Below are positions 12,914 through 52,290 of a DNA stretch of 64,000 nt, in pieces. Made by a program: the position numbers and the translations under genes. Below the pieces are notes generated by a model that had not been told where the DNA came from, ran no database searches, and saw only the letters and a program-made list of their open reading frames with translations. Every line of letters starts with the position of its first letter. Position 1 is the first letter of the stretch. Source of the stretch: Candidatus Latescibacterota bacterium (lineage in GTDB: Bacteria > Latescibacterota > UBA2968 > UBA8231); NCBI GenBank assembly GCA_965217585.1, contig OZ244561.1, positions 736,001-800,000 of the forward strand. The letters are read 5' to 3'.

Positions 12914-12949
12914 GTTTACACTTATAGTATATATTTTAAAAGTGTAAAC
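12914..12949. promoter_or_regulatory. Inverted-repeat operator between divergent DUF2188 and XRE-ImmA genes
   Basis: GTTTACACTT-N16-AAGTGTAAAC perfect 10-bp arms in an AT-rich spacer. Confidence 0.65.
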
Positions 12950-12967
12950 TTCAACATCAGGAGCCAC

Positions 12968-14104: not shown

Positions 14105-14165
14105 GTGACATCCAGTGGGGATCGTCTGCTCCCAAGGGCCAACCCTCCGAATGTTCAGACGGCTT

Positions 14166-38618: not shown

Positions 38619-39004
38619 AGGCCCTGTTGGATACCAATGCGTTAAGTGCCCTGTGGAGCGGCGACGAACGCGTACTCGAGGCCTTGGGTGAGGCAGAGGG
38701 CGTATTTATGTCCATCATCGTGCTCGGCGAATTATTCGCCGGTTTTCGCGGGGGGACGCGGCTGAAAGAGAATCGCGCCCGTTTGGCTGGGTTTTTAGCC
38801 AAACCCACCGTGCGCACGCTCGAATTGTCCACCGAGACGGCCGAGGTTTATGGTCAGATCAAGGATGTACTGAAAAGAGCCGGTACGCCTGTACCTATTA
38901 ACGATGTCTGGCTATCGGCTCAAGCCATTGAAACCGGCTCGGTCCTAATCACTTTTGACAACCACTTTAGCAACGTGCCAGGGGTCCGCCTGTGGGACCC
39001 CTAA
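38615..39004 (+). CDS. vapC: VapC PIN toxin
   Basis: LLDTNAL, IVLGELFAGF, PINDVWLSA, ITFDNHF. Confidence 0.92.
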   Translation: MKALLDTNALSALWSGDERVLEALGEAEGVFMSIIVLGELFAGFRGGTRLKENRARLAGFLAKPTVRTLELSTETAEVYGQIKDVLKRAGTPVPINDVWLSAQAIETGSVLITFDNHFSNVPGVRLWDP

Positions 39005-39047
39005 CCTCTCAGCGTTCTTCCAAGTTGAGCCTCGGTCACGCCTAACC

Positions 39048-39809
39048 CTAAGAAGTCTCCAGCCCCATGTTCTGGTGCTGGCTTTGCAGGGACTCTTGGT
39101 ATCTCCGCCGACCTGCCTCATCCACCTTGCAACTGATGCCTTCGAAGACCATGGCAAAAGCGCGGCGGTGGCGCTGCGACGAGCGATTGGGGTCGGCCCG
39201 GTGGATGACTTCGCCGTGGTGGACTACCGCGTCGCCGGGCTGCAAATGCACCGCGATTTCGTTGGCTTGGTCTTGGGGGCCGTAACCGGCAATGCCCTGC
39301 GAAAAACCCAGCACCGAGGTGCGGTTGTGCGGTCGGATGCCCTTGCGGTGCGAGCCGGGGCTGTAGCGCAGGCAGCCGTTCTCCTCGTCAACCGGGTCGA
39401 GGGCCAGCCAAATGGAGGCGACGTTGGGCGGCGTGAGGTTGAAGTAGAAATTGTCCTGATGCGGCGGCGTAGGGTGTTCGGTCTGCGGCGGCTTGTTGAA
39501 CCACTCGGGCTGGCTCACCTCTGCGGCTTCGCCGATGAGGGTTTGGGATAGGGCCTTCCAGCGCGGCTGGTCGCGGTACTCGGAGAAGAAGGCGTCGTAG
39601 TTGCCCATGCGCTGTAGTTGTTTCAGGGTTTCGGGCCGGTCCTTGTCTTGGTAGAAAGCGGCCTGATCGGGCAGGGTTGGCACCACTTCGCGGATGTAGC
39701 GGGCGACTTGGGCCGTTAGGTCTTTGAGTTCGTCGGGGGGCAGGAAGTTGCGCACGAGGACGAAGCCGTCGCGGTCGTAATCAACTTTATAGGAAGTGTA
39801 GTCGGACAT
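39048..39809 (-). CDS. Phytanoyl-CoA dioxygenase (PhyH) family Fe/2OG oxygenase
   Basis: YDRDGF, KPP..HPTPPHQD, WLALDPVDEENGCL...PGSH, PGDAVVHH..VIHRA..N.S...RRA. Confidence 0.93.
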   Translation of the reverse strand: MSDYTSYKVDYDRDGFVLVRNFLPPDELKDLTAQVARYIREVVPTLPDQAAFYQDKDRPETLKQLQRMGNYDAFFSEYRDQPRWKALSQTLIGEAAEVSQPEWFNKPPQTEHPTPPHQDNFYFNLTPPNVASIWLALDPVDEENGCLRYSPGSHRKGIRPHNRTSVLGFSQGIAGYGPQDQANEIAVHLQPGDAVVHHGEVIHRADPNRSSQRHRRAFAMVFEGISCKVDEAGRRRYQESLQSQHQNMGLETS

Positions 39810-39818
39810 GGTGGCGCT

Positions 39819-39843
39819 CCCTTCGGCTTTGCTCAGGGCAAGC
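39819..39843. repeat. Single REP-like short element CCCTTCGGCTTTGCTCAGGGCAAGC
   Basis: Resembles the dispersed CCCTTCGAC-N-GCTCAGGGC extragenic palindrome type; only one copy in this window. Confidence 0.35.
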
Positions 39844-39953
39844 TCTCAGTTTTTCGGTCGCTTTGCGAAATGAACTCGTATTCGACCGTATCATTTTAAC
39901 TAACTTCATCGCTGAATGACAGTTAATGCGATCTATCCCCGACTTTTTTCATA

Positions 39954-40018
39954 TCAACTAAAATTTTAGTTGACAAGCCGAATGCCGTCGAGTATGTTCA
40001 ACTAAATTCTTAGTTGAA
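39954..40018 (+). promoter_or_regulatory. blaI promoter with two palindromic operators
   Basis: TCAACTAAAATTTTAGTTGA (39954-39973, perfect palindrome) overlaps -35 TTGACA (39970-39975); 17-bp spacer; -10 TATGTT (39993-39998) overlaps TTCAACTAA-ATTC-TTAGTTGAA (39997-40018). Confidence 0.9.
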
Positions 40019-40028
40019 AGGGCTTGCC

Positions 40029-40436
40029 ATGGCGACCAGAGACAAACCCGACAAAAAGCTGACCCCACTCGAAACGCTCATTATGAATGTCCTGTGGGAC
40101 GAGTCTCCCGCAGCCGTCAAGCAGGTGCAGGAGCGGCTAACGGCCGTCAAGCCGATGGCCTACAATACCGTGCTGACCATAATGCGTATCCTGCGCGAAA
40201 AGGGCTTTGTGGTCTCGGAACGAGAAGGTCGGTCCGACCTCTATCGCCCGGTGGTCACGCGCGAGGATATGGGGCGGCGCTCGCTGGGCGAAGTCATCGA
40301 CTCGTTCTTTTCCGGCTCGGCCGAAGCGCTGGTCAGCCAACTGCTGGACGGCCAGTCGCTCACTGACGAAGAGTTGACGGCGATCCGGGCGGAGTTAGAT
40401 CGAACCCTCGAGAACAGAAAAGGAGGCCAGCGATGA
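40029..40436 (+). CDS. BlaI/MecI/CopY family transcriptional repressor
   Basis: LTPLE..IMNVLW, AYNTVLTIMRILREKG.V, FFSGSAEALVSQLL; stop overlaps the M56 gene start (ATGA). Confidence 0.95.
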   Translation: MATRDKPDKKLTPLETLIMNVLWDESPAAVKQVQERLTAVKPMAYNTVLTIMRILREKGFVVSEREGRSDLYRPVVTREDMGRRSLGEVIDSFFSGSAEALVSQLLDGQSLTDEELTAIRAELDRTLENRKGGQR

Positions 40437-42736
40437 ATGCGGCTTTGAACGGGCTGGGTAGCCAGCTATTCGGCTGGTTTGGTCAGCTAAGTATCGAGCT
40501 AGCGGCGCTGGCGGTCTTAGTCCTAGTAGCTAGTCGCCTGTTGCCGATCAAGTCGCCGGCCTTGCGCCACCTGCTGTGGGCGATCGTGCTGCTTAAGCCG
40601 CTCGTCTCCATCGCGGTCAGCTCGCCCTATACGCTATTCACACCGTTCGTGTCACTCTTGGAACCCAGTCAGGACACCCTCGCATTCTCGCCTGTCGAGC
40701 ACCCAACGGTGCAAGTAGCGGCTTCTCCGACAATTGCCACAAGTAGTGTGCATCTTACTACAGCCGGTTGGGGAGCGATACTGTGGATAGTAGGCGCGGC
40801 GCTGCTCATCGGGCGAATTCTGATCGGCTACGGCATCGTCTGGTGCTTGCGGCAGCAGGCTCAGATACAGCACGACGGGCCGCTTTTCGACGCCCTGCAG
40901 CAAGCGCGTCGGACGCTCGACTGCTATCCCAAGGTCGAGGTGGCGATCTCCCCTTCTATTGGCTCGCCGATGGCGCTGGGCATCCTGAGACCGATCATTG
41001 TTTTCCCCACCGATCTCGTGGAGAAACTCAGCGCCGATAAACTCGCCTTGATCCTCATGCACGAGCTAGCACACGTGCGCCGCTGGGACAACCTCACGCG
41101 GCTGCTGCACCGACTAATCGCCGCGGTATTGTTCTTCCATCCCGCCGTGTGGCTGTGTGGTCGCATGTTGCGGCGGGAAGCCGAACAGGCCTGCGACGAT
41201 CTCGTCGTATGTGCCACCGGCCACTCAGAAGCCTATGCGCGCGGCCTTGCCCACGTCGCCGAACGGGCGGTTCACTTAAACCCTTTAATAAGGAGAATCC
41301 CCACGATGAACGCCTTCGCAGCAGAATCGGATTTGGCGCTGAGAATCCGCAGGACGCTTGGCGGCGGTGCTCGTCGGATGGGCATGCGGGCGCGTGTGTT
41401 GACGGCGGTACTGCTATGCCCTCTGGCCGCCGTGACGCTGCCCTCTGTGTCTAAAATCTCGGCTGAGTCGAGTCAGGATGAGCGTCTCTTTATCGTCGCG
41501 GATCAAAACGGCAACATGAAGCTGAACGACAAACCAGTGACGTTTGCGACGCTTAAAGAGGAATTGCAAGCGAAGAGACGGGATGAGCGTCTCTCTATCG
41601 TCGCGGATCAAAACGGCAACATGAAGCTGAACGACAAACCAGTGACGTTTGCGACGCTTAAAGAAGAACTGCAGGCGCAGAGACGACTGCTGGACAATAC
41701 TACGATGATTGTCATCCAAAGCGACGGGCACACCCCGCACGGGCAGATCGTCCAGATCATGTATGTCGCCCGCCAAGTAGGGCTCGTCGATATGGTCGTT
41801 TGTGACACTACTCCGGAAGTGGCCAATGTCGCGACCGCGTTGAGTCGGAATGACGATAACCTTACCACAGAAAATCCCTTTATCGTCGTGGACCAGCACG
41901 GTAATATAAAACTGAACGACAAGTCAGTGACGTTTGCGGAGCTTAAAGAGAGATTGCGGACGAAGAGACGACTATTGGACAATACTACGATGATTATCAT
42001 CCAAGGAGACGAGCGTGCTCCGCACGGGATGATCGCCGGGATCATGGATATCGCCCGCCAAGTAGGGCTCGTCGATCAGGTAGTGGCCACGAAACCGCAA
42101 CCGGAAGTGACCAAAGTAGCGGTTGAGCCAAGTCGGAATAACAGAATCTGGCTGAAGGCGATGGCCACTAATCCAGATAGATGGTCCGACGAACTCAAAA
42201 CCCAGCTTCTCGCGCTCAAACCCAACAGAACCATCAAGGAAATCGCCTATGCGGTCCGTCAGAGCGTGGATAAAATCCGGCAAGAGGCGATGGCCACTGA
42301 TCCAGATGAATGGTCTGACGAACTCAAAACCCAGCTCCTCGCACTCAAAACCCTATTTTTCGGGCTTGAACCTGACAGTACCATCGAGGAAATCGCCGAG
42401 AAGGTCCGCCAGAGAAGGCTTTGGCGGCAGGCGGAAGAGACCGATTCAGACGAGTGGTCTGACGAACTCAAAACCCAGCTTCTCGCACTCAAACCCGGCA
42501 CCATCTCATATGAAATAGCCACCGCTGCATCGGATGAATTATTTATTTCTAACGTAGCCGGAGAGCTCGTTCGAACCTTTTTTTTAGATCATCAGAGTCC
42601 CGGCAAATATAGCATCGTCTGGGACGGGCGGGACGATGCCGGCCGCGAGCGCAGCAACGGCGTGTACCACTATTCGTTGAAATCCGACAGAGAGGCGAAC
42701 AAGCGGAGAAGGTATAGGACGATATTGGTTAGATAA
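40433..42736 (+). CDS. M56 family metallopeptidase (BlaR1-like), copy A, with ExbD-like domains, WSDELK repeats and FlgD/T9SS-like C-terminal domain
   Basis: RHLLW, SPMALGILRP.I..P, HELAHVRRWD, FFHPAVW, EQACDD; C-terminal IIIQGDERAPHG..MDIARQVG (ExbD-like) and YSIVWDGRDDAG...GVY. Confidence 0.9.
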   Translation: MNAALNGLGSQLFGWFGQLSIELAALAVLVLVASRLLPIKSPALRHLLWAIVLLKPLVSIAVSSPYTLFTPFVSLLEPSQDTLAFSPVEHPTVQVAASPTIATSSVHLTTAGWGAILWIVGAALLIGRILIGYGIVWCLRQQAQIQHDGPLFDALQQARRTLDCYPKVEVAISPSIGSPMALGILRPIIVFPTDLVEKLSADKLALILMHELAHVRRWDNLTRLLHRLIAAVLFFHPAVWLCGRMLRREAEQACDDLVVCATGHSEAYARGLAHVAERAVHLNPLIRRIPTMNAFAAESDLALRIRRTLGGGARRMGMRARVLTAVLLCPLAAVTLPSVSKISAESSQDERLFIVADQNGNMKLNDKPVTFATLKEELQAKRRDERLSIVADQNGNMKLNDKPVTFATLKEELQAQRRLLDNTTMIVIQSDGHTPHGQIVQIMYVARQVGLVDMVVCDTTPEVANVATALSRNDDNLTTENPFIVVDQHGNIKLNDKSVTFAELKERLRTKRRLLDNTTMIIIQGDERAPHGMIAGIMDIARQVGLVDQVVATKPQPEVTKVAVEPSRNNRIWLKAMATNPDRWSDELKTQLLALKPNRTIKEIAYAVRQSVDKIRQEAMATDPDEWSDELKTQLLALKTLFFGLEPDSTIEEIAEKVRQRRLWRQAEETDSDEWSDELKTQLLALKPGTISYEIATAASDELFISNVAGELVRTFFLDHQSPGKYSIVWDGRDDAGRERSNGVYHYSLKSDREANKRRRYRTILVR
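41476..41685 (+). repeat. 105-bp near-perfect tandem duplication (35 aa, first half of the ExbD-like domain)
   Basis: GGATGAGCGTCTC..ATCGTCGCGGATCAAAACGGCAACATGAAGCTG at 41476 and 41581. Confidence 0.92.
42156..42496 (+). repeat. Three 'D.WSDELKTQLLALK' repeats in M56 copy A
   Basis: TGGTC[CT]GACGAACTCAAAACCCAGCT occurs three times; two related copies in copy B (about 46245-46440). Confidence 0.88.
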
Positions 42737-42929
42737 CCATCAAACGCGCACCCACAAGATGGTCAAGCCCCAATAGGAGTGTCCGTCTCTGTTTCACACC
42801 TGCTTGGTACCGATTCGCTCGGCCAATTCGGCTTGAATGCGCCACCGGCCGCTCAGAAGCCTATGCGCGCGGCCTTGCTCACGTCGCCGAACGGGCGGCT
42901 CACTTAAACCCCTTAGGAGAATCCCCACG

Positions 42930-43481
42930 ATGAACGCCTTTACAGAAGCAGAATCGAATTTGACGCTGAGAACCCGCAGGACGCTTGGCGGCAGTGCGCG
43001 CCGGATGGGCATGCGGGCACGCGTGTTAGCGGTCGTACTGCTATGTCCCTTGGCCGCCGTGACGCTGCCCTCTTGTGGCGCTACCTCGGAAGAGTCCAAC
43101 GTCTCGGCTGAGCCGAGTCGGGATGAGCATCGCGTTGTCGTCGAGGATCAAGATTCCAATACAAGTGGCGATACAGCCACACAAACAGAAAAACTGGACT
43201 TCAGCATGGAAAGTGCGCCACAAGATTCACTGGTGAAAATTGTGTACTGGATTCCAGAAACGGTTTATTCAGACTCTATCTTTGTAGAACTCGAATTTTT
43301 AAATAATGAGGGTATGATAGTGGCGAAGCCTGTCAATAAAATACACAATCCCGGCTCATATACTGTGTCCTTGTCTAAACGAGGACTTCCCGACGGAGGA
43401 TACTTTGCGAGACTAAGAACAAATCAATCAGAGCAAGATGTGATGCGCATGTTGAATCTGATTTGGGCCAATAGAAAGTGA
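42930..43481 (+). CDS. Orphan M56-derived C-terminal module: signal/lipobox segment plus distinct Ig-like sorting-type domain
   Basis: 42839 to about 43130 is a near copy of the end of the M56 domain; AGGAGA RBS before ATG 42930; VLLCPLAAVTLPSCG then an unrelated lower-GC domain (PGSYTVSL...LPDGGYFARL). Confidence 0.72.
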   Translation: MNAFTEAESNLTLRTRRTLGGSARRMGMRARVLAVVLLCPLAAVTLPSCGATSEESNVSAEPSRDEHRVVVEDQDSNTSGDTATQTEKLDFSMESAPQDSLVKIVYWIPETVYSDSIFVELEFLNNEGMIVAKPVNKIHNPGSYTVSLSKRGLPDGGYFARLRTNQSEQDVMRMLNLIWANRK

Positions 43482-44776
43482 GGTTCGAGATGTATTTCGA
43501 CAAGTGCAGACTGATAGCGAGCCTGGTGATGTGCCTGGTCGTATGTTCTCTGTGTTCTGCACAACAATCAACCCATTCAGAAGAAGAGATGAAGCGGTTT
43601 GACCAATTTAGGACTGGGTACCGCTCTCCCGAGACCACAGAGCAATATTGGGAAGGCATTTTGGGACTTGAGCAATTGCTTGCAGATTATCCCAATACCT
43701 TTCTGAAAGGCGACATCTCCATTACACTGTTGGATTATTATCAACAGGTCACTGATGATCCACACCTGTTGATTGAGCTGGCTGAAAAAATGCTTGCATT
43801 GCGGATGTACTCCAACGCTGTTTATAAAACTGCTGCTCGGGTACTTGTGGACAAGCAGGTTCGGTCTGATAAAACACTTCTATATGCACAGAACGCATTA
43901 AAAGGAGCATTGCAGAACCAAGAAAAATGGAGACTTAACGGCAAAGGAGAACTACACTATCGCGATCTATTGGCGCGTGCTTACCAACTAGTTGGGCAAC
44001 ACGATCAATCTGTCGCGGAAATGAAGACCGTGATTCGCGGATGGCAAACTCGAAAGGATTTAGGCGGCCTGGAACTGGAATATCGGCAGGCAGCCGTAGA
44101 TCGAGCAAAGGCCAATTTGCTGCGGATTTACATTGATCAAAAAGCCTGGAGCCAGGCTTACGAACTGGCATCAGAATTATTGCTAACTTCGGTCGTGCGT
44201 CGAGATGTTGCGGAATTGTGGAGCCAAGCTTACGTGGGGAAATTTGGCTCAGGCGTAGGGATGAGCAAAGCCTATGCTTCCTCAAAGGCCGAGTGGGATA
44301 AGAAAATTATCCAACGCGTTGAAAATGAGCGGATCTCACGACCTGCACCGACCCTTGCGGTGCAAAAGCTGGACGGTGAGCAGATCACTTCAGCCGATTT
44401 GCAGGGCAGGGCTTTGGTGGTGACGTTTTGGGCGGGGTGGTGTAGCCCGTGCATTGAAGAGTTGCCCTATCTGCAAAAACTCAAGAAGCAATTTCACGAG
44501 CAAAATGTTGAATTTTTAGCGGTGAATATTGACGAGGATAGTTCAATACGCAGAGATATGGTGGCGAGCTTTCGCTACCAGAGCGCCCCAAGTTTAACAT
44601 TTGTATTGGGTGATTTGGAAATGCGCAAGGCGTTTGGTTCTAACGAGATCCCCTATACGTGTATTATTGATCAGGACGGACAAATTCGCTATGAACGCAA
44701 GGGATTAGGCACTGATTTTAGCGTGGCAATGGCGCATCAGTTGCAGTGGGTGTTGGCAGAAAATCAGAATCCTTAG
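43478..44776 (+). CDS. TPR-like / TlpA-ResA thioredoxin-like disulfide reductase
   Basis: Signal peptide, helical repeats, APTLAVQKLDG...FWAGWCSPCIEELP...IPYTCIIDQDG. Confidence 0.88.
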   Translation: MRFEMYFDKCRLIASLVMCLVVCSLCSAQQSTHSEEEMKRFDQFRTGYRSPETTEQYWEGILGLEQLLADYPNTFLKGDISITLLDYYQQVTDDPHLLIELAEKMLALRMYSNAVYKTAARVLVDKQVRSDKTLLYAQNALKGALQNQEKWRLNGKGELHYRDLLARAYQLVGQHDQSVAEMKTVIRGWQTRKDLGGLELEYRQAAVDRAKANLLRIYIDQKAWSQAYELASELLLTSVVRRDVAELWSQAYVGKFGSGVGMSKAYASSKAEWDKKIIQRVENERISRPAPTLAVQKLDGEQITSADLQGRALVVTFWAGWCSPCIEELPYLQKLKKQFHEQNVEFLAVNIDEDSSIRRDMVASFRYQSAPSLTFVLGDLEMRKAFGSNEIPYTCIIDQDGQIRYERKGLGTDFSVAMAHQLQWVLAENQNP

Positions 44777-44795
44777 AAGACTCTGAAAGAGAATG

Positions 44796-44825
44796 CATCA
44801 CCATTGTCAATTGCTTGAAACAAAA
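44796..44825 (+). repeat. 30-bp direct repeat, copy 1
   Basis: CATCACCATTGTCAATTGCTTGAAACAAAA; 28/30 identical to 50327-50356. Confidence 0.9.
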
Positions 44826-44838
44826 AAGGGAGCCAGCG

Positions 44839-46695
44839 ATGAATGCAGCTTTGAACGGGTTAGGTAGCCAGCTATTCGGCTGGTTTGGTCAGTTAAGTAT
44901 CGAACTAGCGGCGCTGGCGGTCTTAGTTCTAGCCGCCAGTCTCCTGTTGCCGATCAAGTCGCCGGCCTTGCGCCACCTGTTGTGGGCGGTCGTGCTAATC
45001 AAGCCGCTCGTCGCCATTGCGGTCAGTTCGCCCTATACGCTATTCACGCCGTTGGTGTCACTCGTGGAACCCGGTTGGAATGCCCCATCCTTGCCCGTCA
45101 ATCATTCAACGGTGCACGTAGCGGCTTCTCCGGCAATTGCCACAAGTAGTGTGCAACTTACTACAGCCGGCTGGGGAGCGATACTGTGGATAGTAGGTGC
45201 AGCGCTGCTCATCGGGCGGATGCTGATCGGCTACGGCATCGTCTGGTGCTTGCGGCAGCAGGCGCAAGTGCAGCGCGACGGTCCGCTTTGCGACGCCCTG
45301 CGGCAAGCGCGTCGGACGCTCGACTGCTATCCCAGAGTAGAGGTGGCGATCTCCCCTTCTATCAGTTCGCCGATGGCGCTGGGCATCCTGAGACCGATCA
45401 TTGTCTTGCCCGCCGATCTCGTGGAGAAACTCAGCGCCGATAAACTCGCCTTGATCCTCATGCACGAACTGGCACACGTGCGCCGCTGGGATAATCTCAC
45501 GAGGTTTCTGCACCGACTAGTCTCCGCCGTATTATTCTTCCATCCCGCCGTGTGGCTGTGCGGTCGCATGTTGCGGCGGGAAGCCGAACAGGCCTGCGAC
45601 GATCTCGTCGTATGTGCCACCGGCCGCTCAGAAGCCTATGCGCGCGGCCTGGCTCACGTCGCCGAACGGGCGGTTCACTTAAACCCTTTAATACGGAGAA
45701 TCCCCACGATGAACGCCTTTGCAGCAGAACCGGATTTGGCGCTGAGAATCCGCAGGACGCTTGGCGGCGGTGCGCGCCGGATGGGCATGCGGGCGCGCGT
45801 GTTGGCAGCGGTACTGCTATGCCCCCTAGCCGCCGTGACGCTGCCCTCTTGTGGCATTACTTCGAAAGTGTCCAAAGTCGCGGCTGAGTCGAGTAAGAAG
45901 AATATCTTTATCGTCGTGGATCAAGACGGCAACATGAAGCTGAACGACAAATCAGTGACGTTTGCAACTCTCAAAGAGGAATTGCAAGCGAAGAGACAAC
46001 AGCTAGACGACACCACAATGATTATCATCCAAGGAGACGAGCGCGCCACGCACAGTCAGATCGTCCAGATCATGGATATCGCCCGCCAAGTAGGGCTTGT
46101 CGATCAGGTCATCGCCACGGAACCGCAAACCAGCGGAGGCCAAAGTCGGGATGAATCGAGTCGGGATAACAAGGTCAAAGTCGCGGCTGAGCAGAGTCGG
46201 GATAAACATCGCGCTAGCGTCGTGGAACCAAACAGTATCTTGCGGCAGGCGATGGAGACCGAGCCGGACGAATGGTCCGACAAGTTGAAAGCCAAACTTC
46301 TCGCGCTCAGACCCGGCAGAACCATCGAAGAAATTGCCGAGGAAATCCGCAAGAGCAAGCTTTGGCGAAAGGCGGTGGAGACCGAGCCAGACGAGTGGTC
46401 CGACGAACTGAAAACCCAGCTTCTCGCGCTCAAACCCGACAGCACCACCTTCAATAGCAGCACGACTACCCTCCCGTATGAAATAGCCACCGCCGCATCG
46501 GCTGAATTAGCTATTTTTGATGTATTCGGACAGCACGTTCGAACCTTTGTTTTGGGCCATCAGAGTCCCGGCAAATATCGCATGATCTGGGACGAGCGGG
46601 ACGATGCCGGCCGCAAGCTTAGCAGCGGTGTGTACTTCTATAGGTTGCAAACCGACGCAGAGACGACGCTTCGCAGTAAGATATTGGTTAGATAA
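44839..46695 (+). CDS. M56 family metallopeptidase (BlaR1-like), copy B, with one ExbD-like domain, two WSDELK repeats and FlgD/T9SS-like C-terminal domain
   Basis: First ~1 kb highly similar to 40433-41450; HELAHVRRWD; ends IFDVFGQHVRT...WDERDDAG..LSSGVYFYRL; ATG 44839 after GGGAG. Confidence 0.9.
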   Translation: MNAALNGLGSQLFGWFGQLSIELAALAVLVLAASLLLPIKSPALRHLLWAVVLIKPLVAIAVSSPYTLFTPLVSLVEPGWNAPSLPVNHSTVHVAASPAIATSSVQLTTAGWGAILWIVGAALLIGRMLIGYGIVWCLRQQAQVQRDGPLCDALRQARRTLDCYPRVEVAISPSISSPMALGILRPIIVLPADLVEKLSADKLALILMHELAHVRRWDNLTRFLHRLVSAVLFFHPAVWLCGRMLRREAEQACDDLVVCATGRSEAYARGLAHVAERAVHLNPLIRRIPTMNAFAAEPDLALRIRRTLGGGARRMGMRARVLAAVLLCPLAAVTLPSCGITSKVSKVAAESSKKNIFIVVDQDGNMKLNDKSVTFATLKEELQAKRQQLDDTTMIIIQGDERATHSQIVQIMDIARQVGLVDQVIATEPQTSGGQSRDESSRDNKVKVAAEQSRDKHRASVVEPNSILRQAMETEPDEWSDKLKAKLLALRPGRTIEEIAEEIRKSKLWRKAVETEPDEWSDELKTQLLALKPDSTTFNSSTTTLPYEIATAASAELAIFDVFGQHVRTFVLGHQSPGKYRMIWDERDDAGRKLSSGVYFYRLQTDAETTLRSKILVR

Positions 46696-49012
46696 CCAAT
46701 TGTGCCGATTAGAAATAAACCTAAATCGGGGCTGCACTACAACTTAGATTACTGTCGTGTACTAAGGGGATTGGTATGCTGCGAAGTCACTTGAAGTTGG
46801 CGCTGCGAAGCCTATTTCGATACAAAATACACTCGTCTATCAGTGTGTTGGGACTCGCGATCGGTTTTGCCTGCTTCATTATCGTGTTTGTCTTTATTGC
46901 GCATGAGATGAGCTACGATGACTTCCACGAAAATGCGGAGCGTCTGTATCGGGTTAGAGAGGATACAATCGAAAAACGGACGGGTACCCGACATAGTTAT
47001 GCTACGATCAAGCACTCCATGGCTTCTTTATTAAAAAGTGATTTTCCAGAAATCGAAGATATTGTACGCGTTCGTCGCTACAGAGAGAGCAGGTCCGTTC
47101 ACTATCAAGACAAACACTTATTGGAGGATCAAGTTTATTATACCGACCCGATGTTTTTTGATTTTTTCTCCTTTCCCCTGAAGGAAGGCGATGCACGAAC
47201 GGCACTGGAGGCTCCTTATTCCATTGTGTTGACGGAACAGACTGCCTCGAAATACTTCGGGAGCGACAACCCTGTGGGTAAAACCTTGCGCATCGGAATA
47301 GGTTATGGGGGTACAGGCGAATACCTTGTTACTGGCGTGGTCCAGGATCTCCCGTCTAATACACACTTCAAATTTGATTTTGTCGCGTCGATAAAGGAAT
47401 TCAAGCTCCGTAGGGACATTAATGATTCCTGGTACCACACCTACATTCGGCTGGCCGAAAACGCCTCACCGGAGGCTTTGGAGAACAAATTTCCCGAGTT
47501 TTTGGAACGACACAAATACAACTTAGAAGAATGGGGAACGCAACTTTTTCTCCAATCTTTACAAGACATCCACCTCCATTCCCATTTCAAGTGGGAACTG
47601 AGTCCCAACCGAGATGTCCGGTACCTGTATCTTTTGATGGGCATTGCGCTGGTCATTTTGCTTATTGTGTGCATCAATTATGTCAATCTCTCAACCTTTC
47701 GGTTTACCCAACGAGCTAAAGAAGTAGGGCTGCGAAAAGCACTGGGCAGTGTGCAGTCACAATTGGTTCAGCAGTTCTTGGGTGAAACACTTCTTTTGAC
47801 GTTCTTTGCGTTTCTGGTCAGTCTTACTCTGGTAATGTGTTCATGGCCTTATTTAAGTAGATTTCTTGGGCCGGATGTAGAGATAGCTGCTTTTCGCCTT
47901 GCGATAGACTATGGTCTCTGGCTCTTTGCTTCTATCGTGTGCATTGGTCTGATTGCTGGTTTGTATCCCGCCTTTTTTCTAGCCAAGTTCAACCCCGCGG
48001 CCACCTTGGGGGGACACACCCAAAGTGGAGCCACGGCCGGTTTCCTGAGAAAAACGCTGGTCATTTTCCAATTCGCGCTCTCCATCGTTCTCATTATCAC
48101 CACGCTCGCATTGCGCAATCAATTGGAATTCGTGAGAAGTCAGGACTTGGGGTTTGATCGGGAACAGGTGGCCGTAATTCCCGCGAAGATCTTCCAGCCA
48201 ACGCGCATTGCAGAGTATTTGCAGGATCCGAGAATTTTGAACATATCAGGTACTTTCGGATCACCCGGTGTCTTGGATACGAAGGGCAGGTTTATTCCGG
48301 AGGGACGGGATGCCGTAAGTATAAATACTATTGATGTCGATTATACCTATCTGGAAACCATGGGCTTGGAGCTCATCGCCGGGCGCGATTTTTCAAAAGA
48401 CTTCGCCTCTGATGAGCATGAAGCCTTCATCATTAACGAATCGGCTGCAAAATTCTTGGGGTGGAAAAACCCGGTCGCTAAACGCTTAGAACGCACTTCC
48501 ATGCCACAGCGTCGATCCGCTTCGAGCAAGGTCATCGGCGTAGTCAAGGATTTCCACTACCAGTCTTTGCACCATCCTATCGAACCGCTGATAATTGGTA
48601 TGCGGTGGAATATGCAGAACGTGCTTGCTATCAAACATCTTACGGTCAGAATCCACCCGGGAGACATATCGGGTGCCTTGGCGTTTCTCGAAGCCAAGAC
48701 GCGCGAGTTCGTGCCCAACGAGCCCTTTCAATACTATTTTCTCGACGACGTTTTCGCTCAATTCTACCGAGAAGAAGAGAAGATCTTCCGTCTGATCGGC
48801 TTTTTCAGCACCCTGTCTATTGTGATCATTTGCTTGGGTGTGTTGGGGCTGGCCTCTTTTTCGGTTGAGCAGCGCATGAAGGAGATCGGCATTCGCAAAG
48901 TGCTGGGGGCCTCTTCCCCGGGTCTTGTGTATTTGCTGATGAAACCCGTTCTGGTCTGGCTAGTCGTAGCCAATCTGCTTGCTTGGCCTGTCGCTTATAT
49001 AGCCGTCCTAAA

Positions 49013-49599
49013 TCATTTAAGTGCCAAATTATATTGGCTTAACTTAGGGAATTGGAAGTATTTTTTCTGTCGAATGCCCTTGACAAATAGGTCTTTAATC
49101 TGTTCAAAACAGGTGGTCCATACCGCATGGGTACGGACAAAAGTCTTGCCTTTTAACCAGATGTCTTCGACCGGGTTTTCTTGCGGTGTATAGGGCGCTA
49201 ATCGCGTACAGCATATCTTCCATTCATCAGGCGGTAGATCGGCCTGCATCGTTTGTAGAAAATCGCGCATGGCCTGTTGGTGATGATAGGACACCCCATC
49301 CCAAAAGATCAATAACTTTTGTCCGGGACGCTGTTGTTGTAGGTAGCGTATAAAATCGACCGTATAGTGTGCATTGGCCTTGGGATATGGTTGCATGAGA
49401 AAGGTGCCCTTGACTATATCCAACGCCCCATAATAGGTTTGTCGTTGCCGTCCATTTTCAATGGCCACCTCCAGCCGTTGGTCTCGACGCCCCCAGCCAT
49501 AGCCGCAGGCATCGCCCCAGTGTAGATGCGATTCATCGATGAAAAAGGCACTGACTTGACCCGCTTGGAGTTCGGCCTTATGCTCGGTTAGTTTTTTTT
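49013..49599 (-). CDS. IS630 transposase, DDE part (orfB, reached by -1 frameshift)
   Basis: FFIDESHLHWGD, IFWDGVSYH, LAPYTPQENPVEDIW. Confidence 0.9.
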
Positions 49600-50046
49600 A
49601 ATCGCTTCGCGTTTAGAAAGCCCCTGTTGGGGATCGGTCTTGGGGTGCCGAGCTTGGGCCTTTTTCCAGCTATAGCCCGCCTGAGCAAGCAGATCGTAAT
49701 AGCTTTGCGATGAGCGAAACACGACCCCAAACTGCGTTTGGATATAGGAGGCTAATGAGGCGACCGAAGGGTGCGACTGGGTCGCTAACCAAGCGTTGAT
49801 TTGGGCGCGCTGATCCGCCGACAAATACGGCTGTGAGCCTTTATAGCCTAAGCGAAAACAAGCGACCCCTTCGGCCAGATAGCGCTGCTTCCACGTACTG
49901 ATGAAGCTCGACTGCACACCGAGAATCGCTTGAATCGCACCTTGTTTAAGCCCCAAAAGCGTCATCTGAACCGCTAACGCCCGTTTCAGTTCGCGGGCGT
50001 CGGGATTGCTCGCGATAAACGCCGATAAAGACGAATCCGAAACCAT
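49588..50046 (-). CDS. IS630 transposase, HTH part (orfA)
   Basis: RELKRALAV, YKGSQPYL, YIQTQFGVVFRSSQSYYDLL..AGYSWKK; ends at the A8 slippery run (IKKN*). Confidence 0.9.
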   Translation of the reverse strand: MVSDSSLSAFIASNPDARELKRALAVQMTLLGLKQGAIQAILGVQSSFISTWKQRYLAEGVACFRLGYKGSQPYLSADQRAQINAWLATQSHPSVASLASYIQTQFGVVFRSSQSYYDLLAQAGYSWKKAQARHPKTDPQQGLSKREAIKKN

Positions 50047-50326
50047 AGAAAACACTCCTAAAAAAGAACAAGCATGAGAAAACATAGAAGCAAGATAAGA
50101 AAAAACCAAAACCTCTCAAGTCATTTAGGACTGCTATATGACCAATCAAGCCTGGCTGCAGCATTTTGCGTATCGAACTGATTCCGCTGGGTGGGCGTTT
50201 TTGCTGGGTAGTCTGACTCAGGCCCTGACCGTTATAATCACCATCGTTTTGCAAACCAGCAAAGCGGTGCAGATAAACCCGATTCAGACACTCAAGAGCG
50301 AATAGTGGTTTATGTCGTTGTCTTTC

Positions 50327-50356
50327 CATCGCCATTGTCAATTGCTTAAAACAAAA
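50327..50356 (+). repeat. 30-bp direct repeat, copy 2 (overlaps the stop of the ATPase fragment)
   Basis: CATCGCCATTGTCAATTGCTTAAAACAAAA. Confidence 0.9.
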
Positions 50357-50744
50357 CCCCAATATCCCGCCATCCCAAGACGATGCCGTGGGCGCGTTCT
50401 TGGCGGCCTTCTCCGCCGTAGATCAGATGGTAGTCCTGCCCCACCGGCAAGGCCGTTGCCAACTTCTTATAGTAGCGCAAACCCTTAAACTGGTCCGTTC
50501 CCAGCGTCGTTCCCGCCTTGATCTCGACCACCTGCCGTCGGCCACTCCGTTCGTAAAGCAAGTCCAACTCGTTGCCAATATTGTCGCGCCAGAAGTAGAG
50601 ATCTGGACGACGGCCCGCGTTGACGTGCTGTTTGATTATCTCGGCAATGACCCAATTTTCAAAAATCGCCCCGCGTAAATAGTGGGTGGCGAGCTGGTCG
50701 GTCGCCTCCAGCCCCAAAAGCGAGCAAAGCAGGCCCGTGTCGTA
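50346..50744 (-). pseudogene. 5'-truncated AAA ATPase / DUF4143 gene
   Basis: YDTGLLCSLLG...GAIFENWVIAE...LYFWRD..GNELDL...VEIKAG; the ATPase N-terminal part is missing. Confidence 0.85.
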
Positions 50745-50749
50745 GGAGT

Positions 50750-50784
50750 TTTACAAAATAGGATCTGGAATCCTATTTTGTAAA
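50750..50784. terminator. Perfect 15-bp AT-rich hairpin at the sulfatase / truncated ATPase junction
   Basis: TTTACAAAATAGGAT-CTGGA-ATCCTATTTTGTAAA. Confidence 0.55.
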
Positions 50785-50799
50785 GAAATTTGGGCTACT

Positions 50800-52290
50800 C
50801 TATTCCGATTCCTCCAGCGCCCCGTCATAAGGCCCGGCCAGTGCCTCGCCTTGGGCTTTGATTTCTTCCAAGCGGCGCGACAGACTGCGCACGATATCCG
50901 GGTGCTGACCGTACAGATTCTGCCGCTCGGCGATGTCGTCTTTGAGGTTGAACAATTCCCCGGGAAAATTGTGGTCGCTATAGCCCCGCTCCGCCTTAAA
51001 CCAATCCGGCTCGCGGTTGTCGTCGCCGGAAGGAGCGTCGATAAAGACCCAGTCGTCTTGGCGCAGGGCAAAGCGGCCCGCACAACTGTGATGCACGGCT
51101 GAGCGGCGCACCGGCGCGTCTATCTGCCCCTGCAACAAGGGAAAGATGCTAATGCTGTCCTCGGCCGCTCCCAAGGGCAACTGAACCCCGGTCAACTGGG
51201 CACAAGTGGCCATAAAATCGCCCAACAGAGCGAGCTGGTCGCAGACCGATCCGGCCGGCGTAACGCCGGGCCAGCGGGCGACAAAGGGCACGCGGTGGCC
51301 GCCTTCCCAAGTGTCGCGCTTGGCACCGCGCAAATGGGCCATGCTGTAGTGGCCGAATTGGCGCACGTGATCGTAGCAACCGCCGGCCGCGGCTGGGCTG
51401 CACTCGGGGCCGTTGTCGCTGGTGAAGATGAGCAGCGTGTCGTCGGTCAGCCCCTGCTCGTCGAGCGCGGCCATGATTTCCCCGACCACCCAATCGACTT
51501 CGCAGACAAAATCGCCGTACAGACCCGCCCCACTGCGGCCGATGAAGTCCTGGTTGGGTACAATCGGCGTATGCGGTGAGGTCAGCGGCAAGTAGAGGAA
51601 AAAGGGATCGGAGCCAGCTTCGGCGATGTAGGCGCGGGCGCGGCGGACGAATTCGGGGACCATGTCCTCCAGTTTCCAGCCCGGCTTCATGGCTCCGGGC
51701 AGACCGAACATCTCCTCGGGCTTTTGCTCGGTCGGAGCCGCAGCCAGCCGGTCCTGCTCAAACCAAGTGTAGGGCGGGAAATTCGGCACATCGACGCCAA
51801 AGTAGTAGTCAAAGCCACACGCTAGGGGACCGCCGCCTATGGGTTGGCTGTAGTCGATATTGCGCTCTAGGGCTTGGCGCTGGTCGCGGTCGAGGCGGCC
51901 GATGGGAGCGTCTCCGCAGGCTGGTTTGCCGTCCTTGGTCGCCCATTCCCAGCCGAGGTGCCACTTGCCGATGCAGGCGGTGCGGTAGCCCTGCTGGCGC
52001 AGTAGCTTGGCCGCGGTGGGGCGGTCGGCTTCTATCAAGGGCGGATCCCAAGGCCACAGGACGCTGCTTTTGAGCGGAGTGCGCCAGCAATAGCGGCCGG
52101 TAAGCAGGGCGTAGCGGCTGGGCGAGCACACGCTGGAGGAGGCGTGAGCGTCGGTAAAGCGCATCCCTTGGGCGGCGAGGCGGTCGAGGTGAGGCGTGGG
52201 AATTTTGCAGCCGGGGTTGTTACATCCCATATCGCCGTATCCCATGTCGTCGGCGAGGATGTAGATGATATTGGGTTTTTGCCGGGGCAT
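50800..52290 (-). CDS. Arylsulfatase (Cys-type, formylglycine-dependent)
   Basis: PNIIYILADDMGYGD, CSPSRYALLTGRY, GKWHLG, FTSDNG, EGGHRVP. Confidence 0.95.
   Translation of the reverse strand: MPRQKPNIIYILADDMGYGDMGCNNPGCKIPTPHLDRLAAQGMRFTDAHASSSVCSPSRYALLTGRYCWRTPLKSSVLWPWDPPLIEADRPTAAKLLRQQGYRTACIGKWHLGWEWATKDGKPACGDAPIGRLDRDQRQALERNIDYSQPIGGGPLACGFDYYFGVDVPNFPPYTWFEQDRLAAAPTEQKPEEMFGLPGAMKPGWKLEDMVPEFVRRARAYIAEAGSDPFFLYLPLTSPHTPIVPNQDFIGRSGAGLYGDFVCEVDWVVGEIMAALDEQGLTDDTLLIFTSDNGPECSPAAAGGCYDHVRQFGHYSMAHLRGAKRDTWEGGHRVPFVARWPGVTPAGSVCDQLALLGDFMATCAQLTGVQLPLGAAEDSISIFPLLQGQIDAPVRRSAVHHSCAGRFALRQDDWVFIDAPSGDDNREPDWFKAERGYSDHNFPGELFNLKDDIAERQNLYGQHPDIVRSLSRRLEEIKAQGEALAGPYDGALEESE

Follow-up and report, generated by a model that had tools for sequence, protein, structure and literature searches.

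A probable BlaI/BlaR1-type proteolytic switch with a duplicated, ExbD-like sensor gene in an uncultured Latescibacterota bacterium

Introduction

BlaI/BlaR1-type switches pair a winged-helix repressor with a membrane protease of the M56 family, and in BlaR1 the periplasmic part is a penicillin-binding domain. BlaR1 is described as a domain-swapped dimer (PMC9834060). The periplasmic domain of ExbD belongs to a different context, the Ton system. There, one TonB D-box is captured by an ExbD homodimer through beta-strand recruitment (PMC10907165). Here we describe a locus in which these two themes meet, located at 39954..50356 of a 64-kb window (the whole stretch of DNA that was analysed) from contig OZ244561.1 (GCA_965217585.1) of an uncultured Candidatus Latescibacterota bacterium. 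Its genes lie on one strand in the order blaI, M56-A, a headless M56 remnant, a thioredoxin-fold gene and M56-B, and the gaps between them are short or overlapping. The locus is a repressor and membrane-protease operon in which duplication and reshuffling have altered the sensor gene; as a whole it is probably a chromosomal, self-regulated BlaI/BlaR1-type proteolytic switch with a tandemly duplicated sensor gene. For comparison we fetched 22 related loci, 15 of which are syntenic and come from Latescibacterota genomes.

Repressor and operators

The repressor gene (40014..40436, forward strand) encodes 140 aa from a TTG start, followed by an alternative ATG at 40029. Its product is a BlaI/MecI/CopY-family winged-helix protein whose PF03965 match (E 2.7e-30) spans profile positions 1-114 of 115; its PDB relatives are 2g9w and MecI (1sd6/1okr), and in contrast to CopY its sequence has no Cys-rich tail. 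Exactly two 14-bp palindromes of the form ACTAA-N4-TTAGT occur in the 64 kb, where 0.29 would be expected and at least two were found in 4 of 100 shuffles. Operator 1 (39957..39970) overlaps the -35 hexamer and operator 2 (40001..40014) lies just 3' of the -10 hexamer and touches the blaI start; between them sits a promoter-like site, TTGACA-17-TATGTT (39970..39998, forward strand), a consensus match only, whose 10 of 12 matching positions make it the best in 39800-50400. The operator pair, spaced 44-45 bp, recurs as exactly two sites in 15 of the 22 related loci (one site in L016), and operators in these loci always precede the first gene of the operon, even where an orphan-thioredoxin pair comes first. 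One predicted promoter between two conserved palindromes appears to serve a single-repressor locus, and the profile match and the conserved palindromes bear out the one repressor with two operators of an earlier note on this DNA.

Two sensor-proteases with an ExbD-like sensing end

M56-A (40433..42736, forward strand, 767 aa) and M56-B (44839..46695, forward strand, 618 aa, true ATG at 44839) match Peptidase_M56 with E 4e-35 and 2e-37, respectively, and both keep their membrane helices and the gluzincin motifs HELAH and EQACD (residues 210-214 and 251-255 in M56-A). The blaR1_generic model covers the protease part only (E 7e-24 and 1e-24 in the two proteins), and the BlaR1 structure 8exp matches M56 residues 169-265. 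The last membrane helix of M56-A (318-340) ends in LPSV, with no Cys, and that of M56-B in LPSC. Beyond it, M56-A carries two ExbD modules as well as a partial copy of 35 aa, along with three WSDELK repeats and a FlgD_ig tail of Ig-like type; M56-B has a single ExbD module, WSDELK twice and likewise an Ig-like FlgD_ig tail (ExbD matches, E 3e-18 and 5e-11; FlgD_ig matches, E 3e-11 and 6e-9). WSDELK is a novel helical repeat of ~41-48 residues without an earlier name, and the tail end is Ig-like, of the FlgD/T9SS-CTD type. Profile searches found no penicillin-binding domain in either protein; the periplasmic ectodomain of ExbD modules, WSDELK repeats and Ig-like tail stands in place of that BlaR1 domain.

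The repeat shared by the two genes begins 20 nt before each ATG (40413, 44819). The head DNA is 90% identical in ungapped blocks and 91.3% over ~1.15 kb, and the sequences diverge downstream. The earlier note's description of the sensors therefore holds in its main points: two full M56 peptidases with a near-identical N-terminal part of about 1 kb, 2.5 ExbD-like domains, three repeats and a FlgD-like tail in A, one such domain, two repeats and a differing tail in B (which still matches FlgD_ig), no penicillin-binding domain, and several sensors for one repressor, here two intact M56 sensors for one blaI. Among A-type and B-type copies, dN/dS is 0.14-0.28 in the heads and 0.30-0.71 in the tails (median 0.51 for B-type tails), by which both sensors are under selection.

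What is new here is how closely the ExbD-like module follows the lineage's own protein, with 81-87% identity to the periplasmic domain of true ExbD. Related MAGs encode true ExbD proteins (P0446, with 192 member sequences, P0471 and P0472; 135 aa), and module 2 of M56-A shares 62/77 residues, the M56-B module 67/77, with P0446. A model of the C-terminal part of M56-B (m4141bbd1000b; middling confidence, with pLDDT 64, and 60-77 in the ExbD part) has as its top Foldseek matches structures of the ExbD periplasmic domain bound to the TonB D-box (8vgd/8p9r; for 8vgd_B, E 2e-5, TMt 0.83, rmsd 1.9 A), and it also matches the FlgD structure 3osv. Because the module is this similar to the cell's own ExbD, the comparison suggests that the sensors read the Ton system, a link that draws on sequence identity and fold. 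The 45 window ORFs scanned include no tonB, exbB or exbD gene, which speaks against this link.

By analogy with the family, a BlaI dimer would sit on the two operators, and a periplasmic signal would activate the M56 protease, which would cut BlaI and derepress the operon. Given the identity to ExbD, that signal would concern the Ton system, and the paired ExbD-like modules of a presumably dimeric sensor might capture the TonB D-box or pair with the motor ExbD. The Asn/Phe cleavage site of MecI aligns with Gln109/Leu110 in the window BlaI, whereas the P1' Phe is described as almost invariant in BlaI (PMC9834060), so that cleavage at the MecI-equivalent site is uncertain here.

Origin and diversification of the array

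The third, headless module of the earlier note is confirmed (42832..43481, forward strand). It is what remains of a third M56 gene, retaining RRIPTMNAF at the junction, the last membrane helix, here with LPSC, and then a linker and an Ig-like tail. From about position 42832 its DNA is homologous to the 3' part of M56, minus 4 nt that the full copies retain; the likely start is an ATG at 42930 (183 aa) with GGAGAA just before it. The tail is homologous to that of M56-B (hhalign probability 98%, E 1.3e-13), and the model (pLDDT 56 overall) has a beta-sandwich at residues 90-177. This orphan lies at the same position in five other genomes (L001-L004 and L012). Among the six copies compared, five have an intact reading frame, the L012 copy has an in-frame stop, and dN/dS is 0.5-1.0, which points to weak constraint.

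The locus occupies a fixed chromosomal site in the 15 Latescibacterota genomes, with one M56 gene in 10 and two in 5. A blaI remnant lies between the M56 copies in all five two-copy loci (for L002 and L003, residues 1-37/42; for L004, L006 and L008, residues 109-140), from which it follows that blaI-M56 units were duplicated in tandem, through unequal crossing-over, and that deletions came later. In the window just the last 20 nt of blaI are left before M56-B, and one B-type protein, P0082, has a whole BlaI in front. The heads are kept alike by gene conversion: A/B identity (91.3%) exceeds that of orthologue pairs (88.7-90.6%), tracts are patchy, dS is 0.222 between the paralogues but 0.283-0.304 (A) and 0.231-0.313 (B) between orthologues, and the head tree has the shape of a star in which 12 of the 20 inner branches are unresolved.

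The tails change through gain, loss and reordering of modules. Across loci they hold 0-3 ExbD modules and 0-4 repeats, with the Ig tail present or absent and more than one module order: L012 has no ExbD module, and L013 and L020 start with the repeats, end with ExbD and show no match to FlgD_ig. Among the 120 homologues listed, 105 combine M56, ExbD and FlgD_ig, eight are without ExbD, six without FlgD_ig and one without M56. Minimal loci (L007, L009, L010, L011) consist of blaI and one M56 gene alone, with no output gene. Tandem duplication and deletion, gene conversion of the heads and tail variation across the 22 related loci thus support the earlier proposal of diversification by recombination between conserved blocks. 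Fixed architecture in relatives had been named as the finding that would speak against it; because the closest relatives, L002 and L003, share the A-orphan-thioredoxin-B order, the architecture is fixed at shallow depth and variable across species only.

Thioredoxin-fold gene and permease insertion

The thioredoxin-fold gene (43478..44776, forward strand) encodes an exported, TlpA/ResA-like protein of 432 aa with a WCSPC motif (Redoxin E 1.3e-20; ResA subfamily E 1.3e-22, under that subfamily's cut-off), in which an N-terminal signal-like helix is followed by a helical N-terminal part of ~270 aa. Of the 'TPR-thioredoxin' previously proposed, the thioredoxin/Redoxin fold stands (E ~1e-20) and the TPR part does not, its best match (E 1.3) being non-significant. 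The gene is a conserved operon member, found at 82-88% amino-acid identity in 6/15 syntenic loci, and is missing from 9/15; in four of the six it lies upstream of blaI, not after a sensor. Its median dN/dS is 0.31 (window plus the five syntenic loci also carrying the orphan).

Downstream of M56-B, a lineage-specific insertion of ~3.65 kb (46704..50356, forward strand) replaces a ~100-nt spacer conserved in relatives. It contains a duplicated MacB/FtsX-type (ADOP-like) ABC permease gene (5' part 46776..48999, forward strand, ~741 codons; MacB_PCD E 1e-33, FtsX E 1e-16; TIGR03434 E 2.6e-83, below that model's cut-off), interrupted at ~residue 741 by an IS630-type element (49000..50136, reverse strand) of 1137 bp, flanked by TA on both sides and bounded by terminal inverted repeats, whose transposase lies in two frames (HTH part 49588-50109, DDE part 49013-49468). 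The permease 3' end follows (50137..50306, forward strand), with the last 57 codons at 50132-50302, where residues 740-796 of the intact 796-aa homologue P0121, 99% identical to this permease, match at 94.7%. No second copy of the IS element was found in the window or the related loci. A 30-nt direct repeat has one copy at 44796..44825, at the place of the relatives' 99-nt blaI 5' remnant, and the other, 28/30 identical, at the insertion's right-hand end (50327..50356), both on the forward strand; none of the 22 related loci contains its 16-nt core. The permease likewise has no match in any of the 22, and together with the IS element it is most plausibly a later insertion outside the system. 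Contigs of matching length (9,971, 23,426 and 39,260 nt) hint that an M56 gene and the permease co-occur in other assemblies; if this is real, the presence of the permease may not be as accidental as a later insertion implies.

The lower G+C of the cargo genes is as the earlier note had it (0.48-0.50 in the headless module, thioredoxin gene and permease versus 0.60 for the window). Both cargo genes of that note are present, but the thioredoxin gene follows the headless module and not M56-A directly. The claim that each sensor is linked to its own cargo is not borne out: the thioredoxin gene is conserved and often found before blaI, and the permease is found in none of the 22 loci.

Alternative explanations

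Heads that are 91% identical can mislead assemblers, and a collapse or chimera might in principle have made the apparent duplication. Window positions 39000-46171 are, however, collinear with the independent assembly L002 (87.4% over 7276 columns) and, in two blocks of 90.9% and 85.5%, with L003, so the same order holds over 7.2 kb and the duplicated region is not an assembly artefact; A and B moreover diverge at ~9% of sites, their tails are distinct, and the probability left to an assembly error is negligible. A role for the M56-ExbD proteins as components of a Ton/Tol-type motor, and not as regulators, is what the source annotations of P0016, P0037, P0078 and P0099 ('biopolymer transporter ExbD'), the ExbD fold and the high identity to true ExbD would favour. 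The Asp of the true ExbD membrane helix is essential, and P0446 has one (MIDVV), whereas in the M56 proteins the membrane helix that precedes the ExbD module lacks it. The 45 window ORFs scanned include no MotA/ExbB-family gene, M56-ExbD genes invariably come together with blaI and operators, and the protease motifs are conserved (HELAH in 119/120 homologues among the matches listed); a motor role is very improbable.

Two further readings were weighed. The earlier note likened the locus to polymorphic-toxin loci; in such a model, as in those or CDI loci, orphan C-termini would be stored and swapped onto a constant head at the conserved junction, with cargo for each sensor. The junction RRIPTMNAF and last membrane helix do recur, with very high identity in the DNA, in the orphan as well as in A and B, [IV][PS]TMNAF occurs in 115/120 homologues among the matches listed, and tails differ strongly between genomes; the window B tail is closer to L012 (83%, alignment A2) than to its positional orthologues in L002/L003 (64-66%), and a headless 476-aa form starting at MNAF (P0107) exists elsewhere. 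Yet there is a single, weakly constrained orphan, in the same place in L001-L004 and L012 and broken in the last, no toxin, immunity-like domain or recombinase gene belongs to the locus, the A-orphan-thioredoxin-B order is stable in the window, L002 and L003 at 85-91% DNA identity, and the distribution of the thioredoxin gene and permease speaks against cargo for each sensor. The likeness to polymorphic-toxin loci does not hold, and we regard cassette swapping of this kind as improbable. Neutral birth and death has somewhat more in its favour and is still unlikely. In this reading a single M56 sensor matters, and unequal crossing-over has left behind a second copy and an orphan that are on their way out, with no division of labour. 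The single M56 gene in 10/15 syntenic loci, the orphan's dN/dS of 0.5-1.0 and its stop codon in L012, the disrupted or truncated M56 copies in L008 and L004 and the median of 0.51 for B-type tails all fit it. It is opposed by the intact catalytic motifs of both window copies, the head dN/dS of 0.14-0.28 in A-type and B-type copies alike, the A+B pair kept in the window, L002, L003 and L006, and the systematic differences between A and B in ExbD module number and in the residues that follow the last helix (LPSV or LPSC).

Conclusion

The favoured reading remains the self-regulated proteolytic switch with a duplicated sensor gene. An exported TlpA/ResA-like thiol-disulfide oxidoreductase would be the operon's sole conserved non-regulatory product, and the true regulon may be made up of genes at other sites in the genome, as the minimal loci have no output gene. 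With its sensor duplicated and reshuffled and its sensing end closely copying the cell's own ExbD, the locus is an unstudied variant of a known switch rather than a new type of system.

Locus organization and repressor

The locus is a BlaI/M56 switch with a duplicated, recombining sensor and an ExbD-mimic ectodomain, and not a new class of system. It lies in ordinary chromosome, the window also encoding EF-P, AccBC, ScpAB, Cmk, S1, MutS, LptD and PriA, and is bounded by a divergent PhyH-family gene on the left (39048-39809, minus strand) and by a DUF4143 remnant and a sulfatase gene on the right (50346-52290, minus strand). Between these flanks, all on the plus strand, are blaI (40014-40436), the BlaR1-type sensor-protease gene M56-A (40433-42736), a headless M56 module whose 214-aa ORF matches no family (the orphan, 42837-43481), a thioredoxin-fold gene (43478-44776), the second sensor-protease gene M56-B (ATG at 44839, end at 46695) and a MacB/FtsX-type permease gene (from 46776). 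Elsewhere in the window are an RND efflux operon (30513-36684, minus strand; outer-membrane factor, HlyD-type adaptor and AcrB-type pump), about 3 kb upstream and on the opposite strand, an HTH and M78 (IrrE-like) peptidase gene adjoining an AbiEii/AbiEi toxin-antitoxin pair (12902-15690), and PIN-domain genes at 28423-28884 and 38615-39004.

BlaI is a full-length winged-helix Penicillinase_R protein (PF03965, E 2.7e-30, 105 bits against a cut-off of 22.6, positions 1-114 of 115), with 2g9w and MecI as its relatives in the PDB. The palindrome ACTAA-N4-TTAGT occurs at 39957-39970 and 40001-40014 and nowhere else in the window (0.29 expected; 4 of 100 shuffles reach two), and the best sigma-70-like site of the region sits between the two copies, in agreement with the one repressor and two operators of the earlier note. 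A CopY/TcrY copper repressor, a type defined by a Cys-rich C-terminal metal motif, was considered and rejected, as TIGR02698 gives 48.6 bits against a cut-off of 121.95 and the C-terminal 60 residues contain no Cys. One scan of species-representative genomes with M56-A yielded 22 related loci (handles beginning with L); exactly two operators are present in 15 of the 22 and one in L016, always ahead of the first gene, which indicates a single controlled promoter per locus. In a phmmer alignment, Gln109-Leu110 of BlaI aligns with the Asn|Phe cleavage site of MecI, a position located in the repressor's C-terminal dimerisation helix according to PMC9834060; with Gln|Leu in place of Asn|Phe, the cut site is uncertain.

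Sensor proteases and their modular ectodomains

M56-A (767 aa) and M56-B (618 aa) both match Peptidase_M56 (PF05569; E 4e-35 and 2e-37, 121.8 and 129.8 bits, respectively, against a cut-off of 31), carry the catalytic motifs HELAH (at 210 and 209) and EQACD (at 251 and 250), and have hydrophobic helices at about 19-37, 44-65, 108-132 and 318-340. The repeat shared by the two genes starts 20 nt upstream of their start codons, within the end of blaI, and is 91.3% identical over about 1.15 kb, so that the near-identical N-terminal part of about 1 kb noted from the sequence is upheld. The same is true of the lack of a penicillin-binding domain: the BlaR1 models NF000326, NF033108 and NF033109 reach 84-86 bits against a cut-off of 400 and match the protease part only (positions 108-298 of 585), and the Pfam scan found no transpeptidase or beta-lactamase family in the M56 proteins. 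By profile offset, the junction RRIPTMNAF, with its Phe, would fall at the BlaR1 autocleavage loop (Ser283/Phe284; PMC9834060). The last helix is followed by LPSC in M56-B and the orphan and by LPSV in M56-A, the two variants numbering 42 and 49, respectively, among the 120 homologues listed. Judged against the lipobox consensus, LPSC and the Arg-rich stretch before it look like a lipoprotein signal peptide, so that release and lipidation of the ectodomain may not be the same in A and B.

The ectodomains, of 290-440 residues, are assembled from the same kinds of module in different numbers. In M56-A, two complete ExbD modules and a partial copy of 35 residues are combined with three WSDELK repeats (helical, about 41-48 residues each) and a FlgD_ig tail, and in M56-B, one ExbD module with two WSDELK repeats and a FlgD_ig tail, in agreement with the earlier note. 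ExbD (PF02472, cut-off 25.4) scores 66.7 and 43.3 bits, and FlgD_ig exceeds its cut-off in both proteins. A model of the B ectodomain (12-row alignment, pLDDT 64) has an alpha/beta domain at 25-96, helical repeats modelled with confidence at 134-199 (pLDDT 73-91) and a beta-sandwich at 213-287. With Foldseek, the alpha/beta part matches ExbD periplasmic domains, including those in TonB D-box complexes (8vgd_B, E 2e-5, TMt 0.83), and the beta-sandwich matches FlgD and, more weakly, type IX secretion (T9SS) C-terminal domains (RgpB CTD 7pq4, E 8.5e-3; 8glk_D, E 1.9e-2). The T9SS type A sorting domain model TIGR04183 gives 22.1 bits against a cut-off of 23 for M56-B and does not list M56-A. A FlgD_ig-type tail also ends a PorZ-like beta-propeller protein (23568-25772, plus strand) and an F5/8 type C domain protein (60023-61678, minus strand), and because it recurs on these two other secreted-type proteins, it looks like the lineage's general C-terminal secretion-type domain.

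The likeness to ExbD is close. The true 135-aa ExbD of related MAGs is identical to the B module at 67 of 77 positions and to the second A module at 62 of 77, and the ExbD-like modules are 81-87% identical to it down to the C-terminal ATEPQ. A Ton motor subunit was considered and rejected: the membrane helix of the true ExbD P0446 bears an Asp, whereas the M56 helix at 318-340 has none, and no exbB was found, with no MotA_ExbB family member among the 45 window ORFs scanned. The ExbD/TolR equivalog models TIGR02801-4 score 25-41 bits against cut-offs of 123-216. The more distant blaI-M56 loci do without the ExbD module, which implies that it was captured in this clade, or is kept matched to ExbD.

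Pfam at E up to 5 returned no family for the WSDELK repeats or the orphan and no significant TPR, and the WSDELK repeat region on its own drew nothing usable from the Atlas. With whole M56-B, the Atlas returned clusters of M56+ExbD (82% of 72) and M56+CHU_C (52% of 54) architecture, commonest in Bacteroidota and, at scores of 0.78-0.79, to be taken as leads only. A profile search with the B ectodomain against 1.84 billion representatives gave 115,640 matches at E <= 0.001 and only 41 at E <= 1e-30; as the Ig-like tail, present in large multi-repeat proteins, accounted for most of the matches, the search shows little beyond the rarity of the full domain combination. A stand-alone 282-aa lipoprotein in L017 (9869-10717), from an unrelated MAG, has LPSC after its signal helix and four to five WSDELK-type repeats, matches no Pfam family and adjoins an ABC sugar-permease gene.

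The orphan module and the accompanying genes

The third, headless module is confirmed: starting near 42832, the orphan DNA can be aligned to the end of the M56 domain on its 3′ side, a 4-nt deletion apart. It retains the RRIPTMNAF junction, the last membrane helix and a short ectodomain, whose end is homologous to the Ig-like tail of M56-B (hhalign 98%, E 1.3e-13). Its model is a beta-sandwich of modest confidence, for which Foldseek found generic Ig/FN3 matches only, none at E <= 0.001. A GGAGAA-ATG at the orphan's MNAF codon provides a plausible start at 42930; GGAGAA also precedes the orphan in L002 and L003, where the full-length copies have GTAGAA, and it stands at the MNAF codon in 15 of 20 full-length copies overall. 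The ORF is intact in five of six copies (the window and five loci) and has an in-frame stop in L012; in L004 it begins with the first ~14 blaI codons fused in frame to the membrane helix. Its dN/dS is 0.5-1.0, compared with 0.31 for the adjacent thioredoxin gene, a range that leaves out 5 of 15 pairs, those with L012, which the in-frame stop makes unreliable. The orphan is either a remnant in slow decay or a small lipoprotein that evolves fast; it does not belong to a large store of cassettes.

A signal-like helix and a WCSPC motif are present in the thioredoxin-fold protein, which matches Redoxin, ResA and TlpA models. Read earlier as a TPR-thioredoxin cargo of the first sensor, it keeps the thioredoxin fold, while the TPR part (best E 1.3) finds no support in Pfam and the gene follows the orphan, not M56-A. 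The permease gene does lie after M56-B as noted, and is split at about residue 741, its last 57 codons lying beyond a 1137-bp IS630-type element (49000-50136) that has TA on both sides, terminal inverted repeats and a two-frame transposase; no second copy of the element was found in the window or the 22 loci. The ADOP model TIGR03434 matches the IS-split gene at positions 2-760 of 803 with 280.5 bits against a cut-off of 622.3. There are close intact homologues elsewhere (P0121, 99%, 796 aa). A 30-nt direct repeat (44796-44825 and 50327-50356, 28/30 identical) brackets M56-B and the permease; its 16-nt core is absent from the 22 related loci. The window has ~3.65 kb (46704-50356) where relatives conserve a spacer of ~100 nt.

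Fifteen of the 22 loci share at least one flank (PhyH and/or sulfatase) with the window and thereby mark one chromosomal site. Of these 15, 6 have the thioredoxin gene, at 82-88% identity and always within the controlled operon; all 22 are without a permease match. The proposal that each sensor has its own cargo is therefore not supported, since the conserved gene follows the orphan and the other is absent from all 22 loci. An M56 homologue and a permease homologue seem to occur together on each of three short contigs (matched by identical size), and the M56-permease pairing may thus recur in other genomes.

Evolution of the array

Ten syntenic loci have one M56 gene (L007, L009, L010 and L011 consist of blaI and one M56 only) and five have two (L002, L003, L004, L006, L008). 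In every one of these five, a fragment of blaI lies between the two genes: L002 and L003 retain its first 37-42 codons, and L004, L006 and L008 its last 32. In the window the last 20 nt of blaI alone are kept before M56-B. These remnants indicate that the array was built of blaI-M56 units from which the extra repressor copies were deleted. Two unusual homologues are P0082, a single 750-aa ORF in which a whole BlaI is joined to a B-type M56 protein, and P0107, a 476-aa A-type ectodomain that starts from the MNAF codon without a protease head; either could be a gene-calling or frameshift artefact. The order A-orphan-thioredoxin-B is common to the window, L002 (collinear over 7276 columns, 87.4%) and L003, and is therefore stable among the closest species. 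An assembly artefact is ruled out by the same collinearity. The arrangement differs elsewhere: in L001, L004 and L012 the operators are followed first by the orphan and thioredoxin genes and then by blaI, and in L014 the thioredoxin gene, with no orphan match, is upstream of blaI.

The A-B duplication is older than the split of the window, L002, L003 and L006. Because the tree of 23 M56 heads is star-like (5/20 branches starred) and does not separate A from B orthologues, pairwise identity and dS were used in its place. The two heads of the window are about as similar to each other (91.3%, dS 0.222) as to their orthologues (88.7-90.6%; dS 0.283-0.304 for A and 0.231-0.313 for B), and identity is patchy along the gene, the L003 copies being 94-95% identical over the first 250 nt. 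We read this likeness of the heads as probable gene conversion. Heads have dN/dS of 0.14-0.28, with purifying selection in both, and tails 0.30-0.71, relaxed yet below 1.

Tail architecture varies across the family. The ExbD module is missing from L012; A-type tails have two to two-and-a-half; L013 and L020 have the repeats first and the ExbD module last, with no FlgD_ig match; and the distant L016 and L018 have WSDELK repeats only. Among the 120 homologues listed, 105 combine M56, ExbD and FlgD_ig, 8 lack ExbD, 6 lack FlgD_ig and 1 lacks M56, with 0-3 ExbD modules and 0-4 repeats per protein (crude regular-expression counts, to be read as a range only). The homologues are labelled as Latescibacterota or Gemmatimonadota MAGs. 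The B tail of the window is closest to L012 (83%, vs 64-66% to its positional orthologues), which fits a recombinational swap. In L016 (6605-8461), a blaI-linked M56 protein carries three WSDELK repeats and then a TonB_C match that stays below the cut-off (E 0.0036; 18.2 bits, cut-off 24.6), a hint that the family may swap between Ton-system domains.

The same chromosomal site gathers other insertions in relatives. Transposase-like ORFs lie within the first M56 gene of L008 (8860-10000), and two-gene cassettes (128 aa + 104-125 aa) lie between PhyH and blaI in L004 (5981-7558), L006 (8717-9410) and L013 (8715-9408). On the right side, the DUF4143 gene of the window is a 123-aa C-terminal remnant (50346-50717, minus strand), compared with a 388-aa gene in L003 (16158-17324), a locus in which ~2.4 kb of extra DNA precedes the sulfatase gene; a deletion has therefore also occurred on this side.

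Comparison with known systems

The closest characterized relatives are BlaI-BlaR1 and MecI-MecR1 of Staphylococcus aureus and Bacillus licheniformis, which likewise have a winged-helix repressor adjoining and co-transcribed with an M56 protease bearing HEXXH and EXXXD motifs, and a promoter flanked by two dyads. In contrast to these, the locus here has neither a class-D beta-lactamase-like sensor domain nor a target gene coding for a beta-lactamase or PBP2a, its BlaI has Gln/Leu instead of Asn/Phe at the aligned site, and its sensor gene is duplicated. Atypical BlaIR systems, namely PvmSR of Pseudomonas aeruginosa and BlaI/BlaR of Mycobacterium tuberculosis and M. abscessus, are described in a preprint as unable to sense beta-lactams, with the signal unknown (10.64898/2026.08.03.742534); they also pair an M56 protease with a BlaI-family regulator, but have no ectodomain, whereas that here is large and modular. 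The M56-TonB_C fusions of Bacteroides (TonB1 BT0813 and TonB10 BT3898), functionally uncharacterised according to PMC10350073, similarly join an M56 head to a periplasmic domain borrowed from the Ton system, although here ExbD is borrowed, WSDELK repeats and an Ig-like tail are added, and the genes form a tandem array with a common blaI. The ExbD of the ExbB-ExbD-TonB motor has the same periplasmic fold at 81-87% identity, yet the module here stands behind a protease in 0-3 copies, with a helix devoid of Asp and no exbB neighbour seen. Searches of the non-subscription literature turned up no study of M56-ExbD fusions or of this locus; 'peptidase M56' with 'ExbD' returned Bacteroides work only, and 'Latescibacteria' with 'BlaR1' gave no record.

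The earlier note had likened the locus to polymorphic toxin loci. Polymorphic toxin and CDI loci do resemble it in having a truncated module whose junction is common to full-length genes upstream, but here there is one orphan, positionally conserved, weakly constrained and followed by a conserved thioredoxin-fold gene. No toxin or immunity family was found at the locus in Pfam or NCBIfam, and with no toxin domain, no immunity gene and no orphan array, the analogy is not supported. What survives of the proposed one-repressor, many-sensor locus is a duplicated, recombining sensor, without the toxin-locus organization or a cargo for each sensor. Cell-surface signalling may be a functional analogue: there a TonB-dependent transducer, an anti-sigma factor and an ECF sigma factor couple regulated proteolysis to the Ton system (PMC7593790). 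The Ton link is putative here, and the locus differs in relying on putative repressor cleavage by M56, with no sigma or anti-sigma factor.

Proposed mechanism and significance

By homology, BlaI would repress from the two operators, and the M56 protease would relieve repression by cutting BlaI, as direct cleavage by a dimeric, autocleaving BlaR1 has been shown for S. aureus (PMC9834060). An ExbD homodimer captures one TonB D-box (PMC10907165); together with the dimeric architecture of BlaR1, this leads us to propose that paired ExbD-like modules could bind the TonB D-box or the motor ExbD, the switch thus reading the Ton system. A fuller version, which taken as a whole we regard as improbable, would make M56 proteases with ExbD-mimic ectodomains an undescribed checkpoint that acts across the envelope on the Ton system. 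In the sensor dimer, the paired modules would capture the D-box of free TonB or pair with the motor ExbD, and BlaI cleavage would then report the load on the Ton machinery. The paralogues would tune this read-out by their number of ExbD modules (one in B, two-and-a-half in A) and by their anchor (a lipoprotein-like LPSC in B, an uncleavable LPSV in A), and the conserved GGAGAA-ATG at the autocleavage loop would give separate sensor halves (the orphan, P0107-type proteins) acting in trans on shared heads.

BlaI/BlaR1-type switches are widespread beyond beta-lactam resistance, and the signals they sense, like those of the Bacteroides M56-TonB_C fusions, are largely unknown (PMC10350073; PvmSR preprint 10.64898/2026.08.03.742534). 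The 15 syntenic loci offer a natural series from a unit of one repressor and one sensor to a multi-sensor array, with duplication, loss of extra repressors, head gene conversion and tail module shuffling as its steps. The organism is uncultured, and the interest of the locus rests mainly on the testable ExbD-mimic clue. That the sensing end so nearly duplicates (81-87%) the periplasmic domain of the cell's own ExbD gives an unusually direct clue to the signal, and as the known partner of ExbD is the TonB D-box, the question of the signal becomes a binding experiment with purified domains.
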